Numbered from the stretch's first letter, positions 19,563 through 39,707 are shown. The stretch is 64,000 nucleotides of DNA from Candidatus Nanohaloarchaea archaeon (GCA_013343275.1 CP046106.1:416001-480000), one strand, 5' to 3'. A program made the numbers and translations. The notes: generated by a model not told the origin, from the sequence alone.

Positions 19563-20066
19563 ATGAAGGCACCAATATGTAACGTCTGCTTGAAGAGCGA
19601 TGTGCTCTGCAGCAGTTGCAAGGAGAAGTACGAGAACGGTGAAATATCCGATCTGGAAATCGAAATCTCAAGGACACTACAGGATTTAAGCAACGAATAC
19701 GGCTCGCTTAGAGACTCAGAAATCAAACACGCATACGACACAGAAAACGTCGTAGTAATCGTCACAGCAGAGGGAGACGGAGCCAAAGTAGTTGGAAGAA
19801 GCGGAGACATCGTCAAGAAACTCGCAGACGAAATCGGCAAATCAATCAGAGTAGTTGAAAAAAGCGAAGACGACAAAGAAGTCATCAAAGGCCTGCTCAG
19901 CCCTGCTGAAATAGAATCAATCAACACAGTTTTCAGCCCTGACGGCCAGTACAAGAAGATCGTCGTCGACGAAGACTACGAAGGAAAGATCAACCTCTCC
20001 AACGAAGAGTTCGAAGAACTAATCGAACAGATCACAGGGGAGAAGTACGAGCTCTCCTTCGAATAA
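19563..20066 (+). CDS. NusA-like KH-domain protein with N-terminal zinc finger
   Basis: CNVC..LCSSC; KH loop VVGRSG; IGKSIRVVE. Confidence 0.85.
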   Translation: MKAPICNVCLKSDVLCSSCKEKYENGEISDLEIEISRTLQDLSNEYGSLRDSEIKHAYDTENVVVIVTAEGDGAKVVGRSGDIVKKLADEIGKSIRVVEKSEDDKEVIKGLLSPAEIESINTVFSPDGQYKKIVVDEDYEGKINLSNEEFEELIEQITGEKYELSFE

Positions 20067-20658: not shown

Positions 20659-22467
20659 ATGAGCACAGAGAAAAACGCAAAGAACTTCATCGTTGTAATC
20701 GACCAGGAGAAGATAGAACCTGACCTGGCGAAGGAGACCGTCATAAAGTACGATCCATTGAACAGGTCAGGAAAAGAAGGCGGATTCCGCCTCGATGACG
20801 AAGGCCACCTCCACATCGACAACGAAAACGTCATGGAGGCCCACAAGATGGCGATCAACAAGTACCCATACGACGGAGCCATCCAGCTAATCCGACTGGA
20901 CAGAGAGTTCGGAGAAAAAATCCACCAGTACGGGGAAAACGCATTCAGACTCTACGGCCTACCAGAACCAAAAGAAGGCCGGGTAACAGGAATCCTCGGA
21001 AGAAACGGGATCGGAAAATCCACGGCCCTGAGAATACTTGCAGGCGACATAAAGCCAAACCTGGGCCAGTTCGAAGAAGAACCCGACTGGAGCGAAATAA
21101 AGAAAGAATACCGTGGAACAGGCCTCCAAACCCATTTCAACAAACTCGCAGAAGGAGAAGTTACCTCGGCATTCAAGCCTCAGCAGGTCGATAAGATCCC
21201 TGAGTACCACGAAGGGACTGTAGAGGATCTTCTGGAGATAGAGGATGAACGAGATGTTATCGGGGAAGTTGCAGAGAAGACCGATATCTCACATCTTATG
21301 GACAGAGAGCTCGACGAGCTTTCCGGCGGAGAGCTGCAGAGAGTAGCTATTGCATCGACAATGGTGAAAGACGCAGATCTCTACATGTTCGACGAGCCAT
21401 CCTCATTCCTGGACGTAAAACAGCGCTTGAATATTGGAGAGGCCATCCACGCACTTTCGGAGGATGCAGCTGTACTGGTCGTAGAGCACGATCTGGCGAC
21501 GCTCGATCTCGTATCTGACGCAGTACATGTCTTTCATGGAGAGGCCGGAGCCTACGGAATGGTATCGAACGCTTTCTCGACAAGAGAAGGGATAAACCAG
21601 TACCTCGACGGCTACCTCAAAACACATAATTTACAGATCAGAAGCGAATCCATCGACTTCAAACGGACCAAAAGAAGCCAGGTGGAGAAGAAGGCCTCCG
21701 TCTTCGAGTACCCAGAGCTAGCGAAAAGCTTTGGACAAGGAAAGTTCTCACTGGAAGTTGACTCAGGAGTGCTCCACGAGGAGGAGGTTCTCGGAATATT
21801 CGGAGAGAACGGCCTCGGAAAAACTACCTTTGCAAAAATGCTGGCCGGCGCACTGGAGCCAGATCAGGGCCAGTCCCCTGAAGTCGATCTCTCATTCAAA
21901 CCGCAGTACTTGGAATCTCAGGATGCAAACGTTGAGGCCGTAATTTCTCAGCATGTCAACCCTGAGAACAAGAAGTTCAAGAACCGTATTGCAGAACCCC
22001 TCGGGATCGAAGATCTCTACGAGCAGAACATCAACGACCTATCCGGCGGAGAGTTACAGAAAGTGGGCGTCGCGATCTGTCTGTCCAGAAACGCAGACGT
22101 ATACGTACTGGACGAGCCATCGGCCTACCTCGATGTAGAATCAAGAGTGGAACTAGGGAGAGTGATAAAGAGGTTCGCACGGAAAACCGAGAAACCTGTC
22201 ATGGTAATCGATCACGACCTCATACTCCTAGACTATATCTCCGACAGAGGCCTTGTATTCGAGGGAGAGCCAGGAGTTGAAGGCTATGCAGATAATCCTT
22301 CGAAGATCGGAGAGGCTATGAACAAGTTCCTGAAACTCGTGGATCTGACATTCAGGAAGGATCCGGAAACCGGGAGACCTCGAGCCAACAAACCCGGCAG
22401 CCAGAAAGACAAGCAGCAGAGGAAAAAAGACGAGTTCTACGAGCAGAAAGCGGTGAAGAAAGAATGA
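20659..22467 (+). CDS. rli: Ribosome recycling ATPase ABCE1/Rli1, N-terminal domain lacking Fe-S cysteines
   Basis: HQYGENAFRLYGLP, two NBDs (GRNGIGKST, LSGGELQ, GENGLGKTT), TFRKD..GRPRANK..S.KD. Confidence 0.95.
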   Translation: MSTEKNAKNFIVVIDQEKIEPDLAKETVIKYDPLNRSGKEGGFRLDDEGHLHIDNENVMEAHKMAINKYPYDGAIQLIRLDREFGEKIHQYGENAFRLYGLPEPKEGRVTGILGRNGIGKSTALRILAGDIKPNLGQFEEEPDWSEIKKEYRGTGLQTHFNKLAEGEVTSAFKPQQVDKIPEYHEGTVEDLLEIEDERDVIGEVAEKTDISHLMDRELDELSGGELQRVAIASTMVKDADLYMFDEPSSFLDVKQRLNIGEAIHALSEDAAVLVVEHDLATLDLVSDAVHVFHGEAGAYGMVSNAFSTREGINQYLDGYLKTHNLQIRSESIDFKRTKRSQVEKKASVFEYPELAKSFGQGKFSLEVDSGVLHEEEVLGIFGENGLGKTTFAKMLAGALEPDQGQSPEVDLSFKPQYLESQDANVEAVISQHVNPENKKFKNRIAEPLGIEDLYEQNINDLSGGELQKVGVAICLSRNADVYVLDEPSAYLDVESRVELGRVIKRFARKTEKPVMVIDHDLILLDYISDRGLVFEGEPGVEGYADNPSKIGEAMNKFLKLVDLTFRKDPETGRPRANKPGSQKDKQQRKKDEFYEQKAVKKE

Positions 22468-22712
22468 AGAAAGAGGACATAATCTTTGACCGTGGTGACA
22501 ATGAGATAGTATTCGTCAAGACAGAAATCGATACTGAAGACCTGGCAGAGGTCGAAAAGCCGGAAGAACTCAAGGAGAGAATGAAGAAAGAGGAAGGCCT
22601 TGTACTTGAGAACGCAACCATCACAGCAATCTTCAGCGACGAATTCGCAGTACATCTTCATGAAGACTCGAAGATCACGCTTGATGGAGAACAGATCTAC
22701 CCTACAGATTAA
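22464..22712 (+). CDS. Hypothetical acidic protein coupled to rli
   Basis: ATGA overlap with rli stop; acidic composition. Confidence 0.7.
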   Translation: MKKEDIIFDRGDNEIVFVKTEIDTEDLAEVEKPEELKERMKKEEGLVLENATITAIFSDEFAVHLHEDSKITLDGEQIYPTD

Positions 22713-38465: not shown

Positions 38466-39707
38466 ATGAGCCAGAATCAAAACCACGATGAAATGAGCAA
38501 GTACCAGTTGAAGAAGCTGGTCAACAAGCTGGAGGACATCAGAGGCCGGAACACTGAGCTTGTATCGCTGTACATTCCTGCAGGATACGACATGTCGAAG
38601 ATCTCCGAGTTTATTACATCCGAATCTTCAGAGGCCGAAAACATCAAGTCGAAGCACACCAGGAAGAACGTGAAGGCCGCCCTTGACAAGATTTCCAGGA
38701 GGGTGAAGGAGGAGCCTGTTACCCCGGAAAACGGTGTTGCTTTCTTCGCAGGAAATGTCTCCGAACGCGAGGGACGGCCTGATATCCAGCTGTGGGAGGT
38801 TATCCCTCCTCAACCGATCGAATCACGCAGATACCGCTGTGACAAGGAGTTTGTTCTACAGCCTCTGAAAGATATGATCGTCGACGACCGAGTTTACGGA
38901 CTGATCGTTGCCGACAAGAACGAGGCTGCGATAGGATACCTTCAGGGCTCCTCAGTGAAGACCGCATATACACTATCATCTAATGTGCCTGGAAAGACCA
39001 GGGCCGGAGGACAGTCGGCACAGAGGTTCGCCCGTTTGAGAAAGGAGATGCTGAAATCCTTCCTCCAGGAGATAGCGGAGAAATCGAAGAACGCATTCAT
39101 GAGTAAGGCCCGCGAGGATAAGCTGCTGGGCATCATTATCGGAGGCCCTGGATTTGTGAAGGACAAGCTTGTCAGCGATGACTACCTTCATCAGGAACTT
39201 CAGGACAAGGTTATTGCGAACAAGTCGCTGGGCCACTCCGGGGAAGGCGCACTGAAGGAGCTTGTTAACAAGGCGGAGGACGATATCGAGGACTCTGCTG
39301 TTGTGCGTGAAAAGCAGTTAGTGAACGATTTCCTTGAGAACCTGAAGGAGGAGAACGGGAAATCCGAGTACGGCCTGGAACCTGTAATAAAGGCCCTGAA
39401 AATGGGTGCTGTAGATACCATTCTCATCTCGGAGGACTACGAATCTTTCAAGGCCGACTACGAATGTCCCAACGGCCACGAAGATACAGTCTTCGAAGAG
39501 GAGGCTGAGATAGAGGATTCAAAGGAGTGTCCTGAGTGCAATGAGGAGATGAAACTCGAGGAGATGCAGGACATAGTCGATTACATGGCAGGTAAGGCCG
39601 AGGAGATGAGTTCGGATCTTGAGATTATCTCCACTGATCACGAGGAAGGTCAGAGATTGATGAATATGGGAGGCGTTGCCGCCATCCTGCGGTACAGAAT
39701 CCGTTAA
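38466..39707 (+). CDS. prf1: Peptide chain release factor aRF1
   Basis: TELVSLYIP, NIKS, YRCD, GGQS, GGVAAILRY. Confidence 0.97.
   Translation: MSQNQNHDEMSKYQLKKLVNKLEDIRGRNTELVSLYIPAGYDMSKISEFITSESSEAENIKSKHTRKNVKAALDKISRRVKEEPVTPENGVAFFAGNVSEREGRPDIQLWEVIPPQPIESRRYRCDKEFVLQPLKDMIVDDRVYGLIVADKNEAAIGYLQGSSVKTAYTLSSNVPGKTRAGGQSAQRFARLRKEMLKSFLQEIAEKSKNAFMSKAREDKLLGIIIGGPGFVKDKLVSDDYLHQELQDKVIANKSLGHSGEGALKELVNKAEDDIEDSAVVREKQLVNDFLENLKEENGKSEYGLEPVIKALKMGAVDTILISEDYESFKADYECPNGHEDTVFEEEAEIEDSKECPECNEEMKLEEMQDIVDYMAGKAEEMSSDLEIISTDHEEGQRLMNMGGVAAILRYRIR

Follow-up and report, generated by a model that had tools for sequence, protein, structure and literature searches.

A Conserved ABCE1 Without Iron-Sulfur Cluster Ligands in Nanohaloarchaeota: A Candidate Cofactor-Independent Ribosome Recycler

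Introduction

A gene for the ribosome-splitting ATPase ABCE1 (RLI) whose product lacks every cysteine ligand of the two [4Fe-4S] clusters, and keeps the domain that carries them in canonical ABCE1, lies at positions 20659..22467 (+ strand) of a 64,000-nucleotide stretch of DNA from Candidatus Nanohaloarchaea archaeon (GCA_013343275.1, CP046106.1:416001-480000), the whole of which is called the window below. This gene is the sole ABCE1 copy of its genome, and the cysteine-free form is a lineage trait of the Nanohaloarchaeota. The reading preferred here, to which a probability of about 0.7 is given, is that the protein would be the organism's one working ABCE1 and would act in the ordinary way, with a protein-only, cluster-free wedge.

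Acting with aRF1 or aPelota, the twin-ATPase ABCE1 splits ribosomes that have terminated or stalled. Passages of two reviews state that every archaeon and eukaryote has it, that its eight cysteines are conserved and that its clusters are indispensable to folding and function (PMC6088178, PMC13255074). For Haloferax volcanii, ABCE1 is likewise reported to be essential, on unpublished results cited in one article (PMC3828320). Neither a cysteine-free nor a one-cluster ABCE1, nor an archaeon without ABCE1, was found described in the literature, subscription journals and supplementary files lying outside the scope of that search; the variant seen in the window was likewise not found as an already characterized protein. 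In the single article that turned up with both ABCE1 and Nanohaloarchaea or DPANN, they are named in unrelated places (PMC6514570).

A Full-Length ABCE1 and the Only Copy of the Genome

The open reading frame (ORF) of 602 codons plus stop translates into a protein that holds the landmarks IVVIDQEK, KYDPLNRSG, HIDNENV and NKYPYDGAIQLIRL, by which the first-pass annotation of the window had recognized an ABCE1 with an N-terminal domain of canonical length. Both the identity and the length are borne out. The NCBIfam equivalog model NF009945, whose cut-off is 469 bits, gives the protein 723.6 bits, residues 11-596 covering positions 4-590 of a model 592 positions long, and HMMER aligns residues 8-594 with the P. 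abyssi ABCE1 3bk7 (E = 3e-161), an end-to-end alignment at 44% identity in which the N-terminal domain (N-domain) is undiminished in length. The source genome is one closed contig of 915,886 bp, 96.5% complete, and a whole-genome search recovered a single full-length ABCE1, the runner-up ABC protein scoring 45.8 bits; the second, canonical copy that might have done the work in its place, a possibility raised in the first-pass annotation, was found nowhere in it.

Pfam ABC_tran matches the protein in two stretches, and both nucleotide-binding domains (NBDs) and the hinge are covered by the 3bk7 alignment through residue 594. The NBD1 core (20971..21402, + strand; ABC_tran residues 105-248) contains Walker A at G111-K120, the signature at L221-R228 and Walker B at D245-E246. 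The NBD2 core (21802..22218, + strand) contains Walker A at G382-T389, the signature at L461-Q467, Walker B at D485-E486 and H519, and also holds Cys474 (22078-22080). Walker A, Walker B, the signature and the H-loop of both NBDs are invariant among 37 sequences. A full-length AlphaFold2 (AF2) model, built from 37 Cys-free relatives and with a mean predicted local distance difference test score (pLDDT) of 81.2, fits ribosome-bound ABCE1 along some 600 columns, with a template modelling (TM) score of 0.81 to 7o80. On alignment evidence, the window protein is classed as an ABCE1 orthologue by descent and not as an Fe-S (iron-sulfur) protein.

All Eight Ligand Positions Are Substituted

The N-domain (residues 10-80; 20686..20898, + strand), a putatively ferredoxin-like counterpart of the FeS domain according to alignments to 3bk7 and 6tmf, presents 0/8 cluster ligands, and the sole cysteine of the protein is residue 474 in NBD2, just as had been noticed in the first reading of the sequence. 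Ligand positions were mapped through S. solfataricus 6tmf_d, whose C-x4-C-x3-C-x3-C spacing matches, and through the alignment to P. abyssi 3bk7; all eight positions are substituted with respect to these archaeal proteins. Positions Cys1-Cys4 are taken by I19, A24, V28 and D32 (former ligand motif 1; 20713..20754, + strand, from the 6tmf_d alignment) and positions Cys5-Cys8 by M59, H62, A65 and Y69 (former ligand motif 2; 20833..20865, + strand, from the 3bk7 and 6tmf_d alignments). The two clusters of human ABCE1 are listed in part of a 2026 review as C16-C21-C25-C65 and C29-C55-C58-C61 (PMC13255074), a list from which it follows that Cys1-3 and Cys8 bind one cluster and Cys4-7 the other. In the window protein the Cys1-3/Cys8 set has been replaced by the hydrophobic residues I, A, V and Y, and the Cys4-7 set by D, M, H and A. 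The N-terminal 110 residues alone match 3bk7 (7.5e-08) and S. solfataricus 6tmf_d (4.8e-06). A Pfam search of the window protein returned 23 families at E<=1, among which neither Fer4_RLI (PF04068) nor Fer4 (PF00037) occurred.

A Lineage Trait Under Purifying Selection

The distribution of the trait was followed in an order-level set of 70 genomes, to which a phylum-level sample (at least 80% complete, n = 52) added no new genomes or families. ABCE1 was found in 46/49 genomes of family f1, 8/8 of f4 and 1/1 of f5, in 0/1 of f2 (61% complete) and in 0/10 of f3 (80-93% complete). The N-domain was recovered from 54 genomes, with an intact frame in all 54, and is at least 65 residues long in 53. 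No cysteine at all occurs in 51 of these 53 (43 from f1 and eight from f4); the other two are G005 (f1), which has five cysteines and one ligand set, and G028 (f5), which is canonical with nine. The 54th genome, G059, contributes a partial N-domain of 59 residues, also without cysteine.

A search with the N-domain in a collection of 5.8 billion proteins gave 143 proteins at E<=1e-3; the 120 listed, which are annotated simply as RLI, have zero cysteines before the FRLY motif in 120/120 cases. Named relatives of the window ABCE1 include Candidatus Nanohalobium, Nanohaloarchaea archaeon SG9 and Candidatus Nanosalina. Because it recurs in 51/53 phylum genomes and in all 120 of the listed database proteins, the cysteine-free state is not a product of chance; it is a lineage trait of the Nanohaloarchaeota. 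An exhaustive search of representatives yielded 438 ABCE1 clusters at E<=1e-30, and among the best 150 of the 438 the only full N-domains with 0-1 cysteines were those of P0096, P0121, P0133 and P0123, two of which, those retained for the tree, sit within the nanohaloarchaeal clade.

The 51 Cys-free N-domains agree without exception in 21 columns, among them D32, P33, L34, R36, G38, M59 and H62. The ratio of nonsynonymous to synonymous substitution rates (dN/dS) of the N-domain is 0.009-0.077 in the eight pairs with measurable dS (of 13 close pairs), and it is lower than that of the NBDs (0.023-0.125) in 6/6 pairs for which both could be computed. The N-domain is under strong purifying selection. 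That it might instead be a leftover from genome reduction, decaying and functionless by itself, would agree with the small size of the genome (0.9 Mb) and with the loss of ferredoxin-type domains (Fer4 in 2/39 f1 genomes), but such decay is contradicted by these dN/dS values, by the 21 invariant columns, by the 54/54 intact frames and by a length equal to that in 3bk7, and it is very improbable.

A Proposed Protein-Only Wedge

The first-pass annotation had proposed a cofactor-independent recycler, and this is still the best reading of the sequence data, because the protein is an ABCE1, is the only copy, has no cluster ligands and has a conserved N-domain. The N-terminal wedge would be held together without two [4Fe-4S] clusters: I, A, V and Y at the Cys1-3 and Cys8 positions would fill the cavity of that cluster, and the invariant D32, M59 and H62 would make a packing or hydrogen-bond network. 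ATP-driven closure of the NBDs would still swing the N-domain into the subunit interface, a movement that should remain possible since the length, the predicted (beta-alpha-beta)x2 order and the uS12 loop are kept. Cofactor-free folding of the N-domain and retained splitting activity are both presumed here.

As to the uS12 loop, part of a report on the high-resolution 30S-ABCE1 structure lists, in S. solfataricus numbering, P25, R28 and S29 as the residues that contact uS12 and counts E74 among the cantilever contacts (PMC7196836). These residues align to P33, R36, S37 and E83 of the window protein, in which the uS12-contact surface is thus kept; by alignment, the counterpart of the contacting loop is P33-L-N-R36-S37-G38 (20755..20772, + strand). 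As to the fold, the modelling of the domain suggested in the first-pass annotation gave a divided answer. On the one hand, both models predict the element order beta-alpha-beta-beta-alpha-beta (E10-14, H21-31, E43-45, E51-53, H55-68, E75-79), and a ferredoxin-like (beta-alpha-beta)x2 fold of the N-domain is plausible. On the other hand, confidence in the modelled domain is moderate, with pLDDT values of 56-72 for the domain in the full-length model, 59.6 for the isolated domain and 56-73 for the listed elements in the two models. For the isolated domain no Foldseek match reached E<=0.001; at the top of the list stood weak matches, 6tmf_d (E 0.02) and ferredoxins (probability 0.90-0.93). A search of the ESM Atlas with residues 1-100 gave no usable match.

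These modest scores for the isolated domain weigh against a cluster-free wedge that still works, and so do four further points. First, several ribosomal RNA (rRNA) contacts are changed with respect to S. solfataricus (R2 to F10, K15 to L23, N17 to K25, E19 to T27 and K59 to N67). Second, according to a passage of the 2026 review, neither yeast nor S. solfataricus can do without the cysteines (PMC13255074). Third, the absence of ABCE1 from family f3, taken up below, may mean that its classical role is dispensable in the phylum. Fourth, D32, M59 and H62 stand exactly at Cys4-Cys6 and do not vary among 51 sequences, drawn from two families that differ at the other four positions.

The last of these points would suit a different cofactor, in which D32, M59, H62 and perhaps E60 would form a mononuclear metal site (e.g., Fe, Cu or Zn) with a structural or sensor role, and the same D/M/H residues also occur in 20/20 of the one-cluster proteins described below. 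However, three ligands of the D/M/H type make up no recognized site in a ferredoxin-like fold, a fourth conserved ligand is not evident (the Cys7 position is A in f1 and I/V in f4), and packing or hydrogen bonding would account for the invariance just as well. A substitute metal site is accordingly regarded as improbable, and the protein-only wedge is preferred to it.

A Family Without ABCE1

The ten draft genomes of family f3 (G026, G029, G031, G033, G035, G037, G039, G041, G042 and G043; e.g., loci L119-L128) contain no ABCE1, the best NF009945 match in them being 94 bits and limited to a single NBD. Ten chance misses at the completeness of these genomes are very unlikely. aRF1 is present in 9/10 of them and Pelota in 9/10. 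The bacterial ribosome recycling factor (RRF) was considered as a substitute for ABCE1 in f3 and rejected, as it was found in 0/10 genomes.

A family that does without ABCE1, yet keeps aRF1 and Pelota in nine of ten genomes each, gives some room to the idea that ABCE1 is conserved elsewhere in the phylum but is not the main splitter there, ribosomes being recycled by another route and the protein serving a secondary role such as anti-association, a link to initiation or ribosome biogenesis; the altered rRNA contacts of the wedge domain point the same way. Against it, selection constrains the N-domain no less than the ATPase domains, and the protein keeps every ATPase motif as well as the uS12 loop and E83 at the cantilever. 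No alternative recycling factor was found, bacterial RRF being present in 0/10 f3 genomes. A merely secondary role is judged unlikely, and ordinary splitting by the cluster-free protein is favored over it. If f3 is truly without ABCE1, its members would have an ABCE1-independent recycling route as yet undescribed in archaea, and the family makes it testable whether an archaeon can recycle its ribosomes without ABCE1.

Fe-S Assembly Is Kept and the Ferredoxin-Type Repertoire Is Lost

The cluster-free ABCE1 had been thought, in the first reading of the window, to fit an organism that may lack Fe-S assembly. This part does not stand: the source genome encodes SufB (295 bits), SufD (202 bits) and two cysteine desulfurases of the class-V aminotransferase type, it keeps three likely Fe-S clients (an Elp3-type radical-SAM protein, a TtuA-like PP-loop thiolase and an XPD-like DEAD_2 helicase), and in family f1 SUF accompanies the Cys-free form in 38/39 genomes. 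Searched genome-wide, PF00037 gave no match at E<=0.1, and no trans-acting ferredoxin was found; the best PF04068 match in the genome reaches 12.3 bits and is located outside ABCE1, and the motif CxxCxxCxxxC occurs in none of 975 crude ORFs. Judged by such profile and motif searches, the Fe-S proteome is much reduced and its ferredoxin-type repertoire lost. A mere effect of low cysteine usage throughout the genome was rejected as the explanation of the missing ABCE1 cysteines: in the 975 crude ORFs cysteine makes up 0.62% of residues overall, and CxxC pairs are kept in 90.

The same contrast runs through the families, as counted in genomes at least 80% complete, counts that are descriptive since kin are not independent. 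In f1, where ABCE1 is Cys-free, Fer4 domains occur in 2/39 genomes and SufBD in 38/39; f4, also with Cys-free ABCE1, has Fer4 in 0/1 and SufBD in 1/1. In f3, which is without ABCE1, Fer4 domains occur in 7/10 genomes and SufBD in 1/10, and in f5, with canonical ABCE1, in 1/1 and 0/1, respectively. The families with Cys-free ABCE1 thus possess SUF and have lost nearly all ferredoxin-type proteins, whereas the ferredoxin-bearing families are without SUF. This contrast could reflect a split between oxic-brine and anoxic lifestyles, and the clusters of ABCE1 could have been lost in the course of adapting to oxygen or to a shortage of iron. The likely driver would be the combination of oxic brine and a minimized Fe-S proteome, in which an essential translation factor would benefit from shedding its labile clusters. 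The clusters of yeast ABCE1 are reported to be a main target of oxidative damage (PMC3442406).

A separate observation concerns the SUF genes themselves. SufB-type genes lie in frames of 829-890 residues at G057:C54, G056:C58, G067:C15 and G004:C71; in some of these frames the SUFBD_core match is split at about residue 170, and an in-frame insertion is possible.

Haloarchaea and One-Cluster Relatives

It had also been anticipated that Cys-less paralogs may exist in haloarchaea. For ordinary haloarchaea this is not so. From 301 genomes, sampled at phylum level around a methanogen-related locus, the N-domain query matched 287, and among the best 30 of those loci 20 are high-GC, acidic and haloarchaeal-type, with nine cysteines, and seven are lower-GC, with 8-9. 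A further 20 haloarchaeal-type loci have nine cysteines after the start Met, which brings the genomic loci of this type with nine to 40/40. One of the nine-Cys sequences is 100% identical to the RLI of Halopenitus persicus; a search with it gave 1,218 proteins at E<=1e-10, and among the 120 listed of these, PF04068 together with exactly nine N-domain cysteines was present in 120/120, the named ones, about half of them, belonging to Halobacterium, Haloferax, Halorubrum, Halorussus and other haloarchaeal genera. Ordinary haloarchaea carry canonical ABCE1.

What does stand of that expectation is a single genome and a small group. The haloarchaeal-type genome G361 (2.8 Mb, GC 0.65) has a canonical nine-Cys ABCE1 plus an extra Cys-free copy (loci L180 and L210), and it is the only one of the 301 sampled genomes with such a copy. 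The extra copy (L180) is f4-like, being 57-60% identical to f4, and may result from gene transfer or from bin contamination; G361 has one Pelota only. The small group has a one-cluster ABCE1. In G229 and G099 (about 2 Mb; L181 and L182), the sole ABCE1 keeps exactly Cys1-3 plus Cys8, and the one-cluster form, with 4-5 cysteines, is found in 20/20 proteins of the group (P0390-P0409), whose named members are a Halorutilales archaeon, Halobacteria metagenome-assembled genomes (MAGs) and one Haladaptatus. All 20 have D/M/H at Cys4-6.

Within the Nanohaloarchaeota, G005 has a comparable protein. Its ABCE1 (L017; G005:C20:5128-6897) is 71-78% identical to f1 in the NBDs and 42-48% identical to f1 in the N-domain, which is 59% identical to that of the one-cluster protein P0217; to judge from these identities, the gene looks like a mosaic. 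P0217 itself is 344 residues long, with a one-cluster N-domain and apparently one fused NBD. Among the best 150 of the 438 representatives, P0146 keeps Cys4-7 only, i.e., the opposite single cluster. The eukaryote-like representatives P0164, P0173, P0183, P0197 and P0209 have 5-6 cysteines.

Order of Cluster Loss

Trees were built from NBD columns only, the columns of the cysteine trait itself being excluded; one of them was a quick tree. The reduced-Cys proteins form one clade, with a Shimodaira-Hasegawa-like approximate likelihood ratio test (SH-aLRT) support of 98, whose sister is the canonical f5 protein (87). This clade is distant from ordinary haloarchaea, which join methanogen-type sequences (99), and the one-cluster haloarchaeal group is placed with the nanohaloarchaeal ABCE1 on the NBD tree. 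Since D/M/H at Cys4-6 is common to one-cluster and cluster-free proteins, comparison of the sequences indicates that the Cys4-7 cluster was most likely lost first, and once.

The fate of the remaining cluster is less clear-cut. On the quick tree the one-cluster group adjoins f1 (96), a placement which suggests that the last cluster may have been lost separately in f1 and f4. The residues that replace Cys1-3 and Cys8 differ between the two families, being I, A, V and Y in f1 and V, V, A and I/V in f4. In an approximately unbiased (AU) test, a single Cys-free clade was not rejected (p-AU 0.628), the constrained tree being better by 4.45 log-likelihood units (lnL). Tentatively, these forms can be arranged as a natural ABCE1 series, with two clusters in f5 and ordinary haloarchaea, one in the Halorutilales-like group and G005, none in f1 and f4, and no ABCE1 at all in f3, an arrangement that is possible and still rather doubtful. 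From the one-cluster relatives the probable order of the losses can be read.

Comparison With Known Systems

In its domain order, length, twin NBDs, hinge, C-terminus, uS12 loop and single copy, the window protein resembles canonical ABCE1/Rli1 (3BK7, 6TMF, yeast and human). It differs from it in having none of the eight cysteines that serve two [4Fe-4S] clusters, no PF04068 or PF00037 signal and several changed rRNA contacts. Its nearest relatives on the NBD tree, within the clade supported at 98, are the one-cluster proteins (Halorutilales-like P0390-P0409 and L181/L182; L017 of G005), which share with it D, M/T and H at Cys4-6 and the PLNRS loop, but they keep Cys1-3 plus Cys8 and a PF04068 match of 34.3 bits, whereas the window protein has lost these four cysteines too.

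Engineered delta-FeS constructs of ABCE1 made for crystallization (1YQT, 3OZX and 5YV5) are, like the window protein, twin-NBD bodies without clusters. Such constructs bind ribosomes but do not split them. The likeness is limited, as the constructs are without the entire domain, whereas the window protein keeps a conserved domain minus the clusters. ABC-F ATPases (EttA etc.) are likewise soluble, ribosome-binding twin-NBD proteins without Fe-S clusters and match at E 1e-23 to 1e-26, but they are another family, with no N-terminal wedge and no ABCE hinge, and their NCBIfam scores are far under the cut-offs.

The Cys-free lineage is a natural experiment in which both clusters were discarded with the wedge under strong selection, and it bears on whether the clusters are a mechanical necessity or a mere scaffold. 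A conserved, cluster-free sole ABCE1 suggests, as far as sequences can tell, that the clusters may not be indispensable for ribosome splitting; if the cluster-free protein still splits ribosomes, then the mechanism of recycling does not depend on Fe-S clusters. The protein would also offer biochemistry an oxygen-insensitive ABCE1.

Partner Genes and Neighboring Reading Frames

Both partners of ABCE1 are encoded in the source genome. The gene for aRF1, its A-site partner, lies in the window at 38466..39707 (+ strand; TIGR03676 452.8 bits at G000:C1:454499-455698), and Pelota is matched at 210.7 bits. Several genomes have aRF1 genes in unusually long frames of 917-973 residues (G039:C10, G042:C5, G033:C3, G015:C5, G004:C84, G046:C7, G067:C23, G011:C5, G057:C75 and G007:C52). 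The family match in these frames is split at about residue 174 (2-174 and 174-402), which suggests an in-frame insertion of about 500 residues, possibly an intein.

ABCE1 is followed in the window by an acidic ORF of 82 codons (22464..22712, + strand, from the ORF call), the ATG of which overlaps the ABCE1 stop; no Pfam family matched it, and it is kept downstream of ABCE1 in 6/29 loci. Upstream lies a NusA-like KH-domain gene (19563..20066, + strand; Pfam KH_5), and a KH_5 gene occupies this place in 25/29 loci of relatives, in f1 and f4 alike; at the G005 locus the KH gene abuts ABCE1, and no endonuclease gene was seen there. The upstream KH_5 protein carries a CxxC...CxxC motif at its N-terminus.

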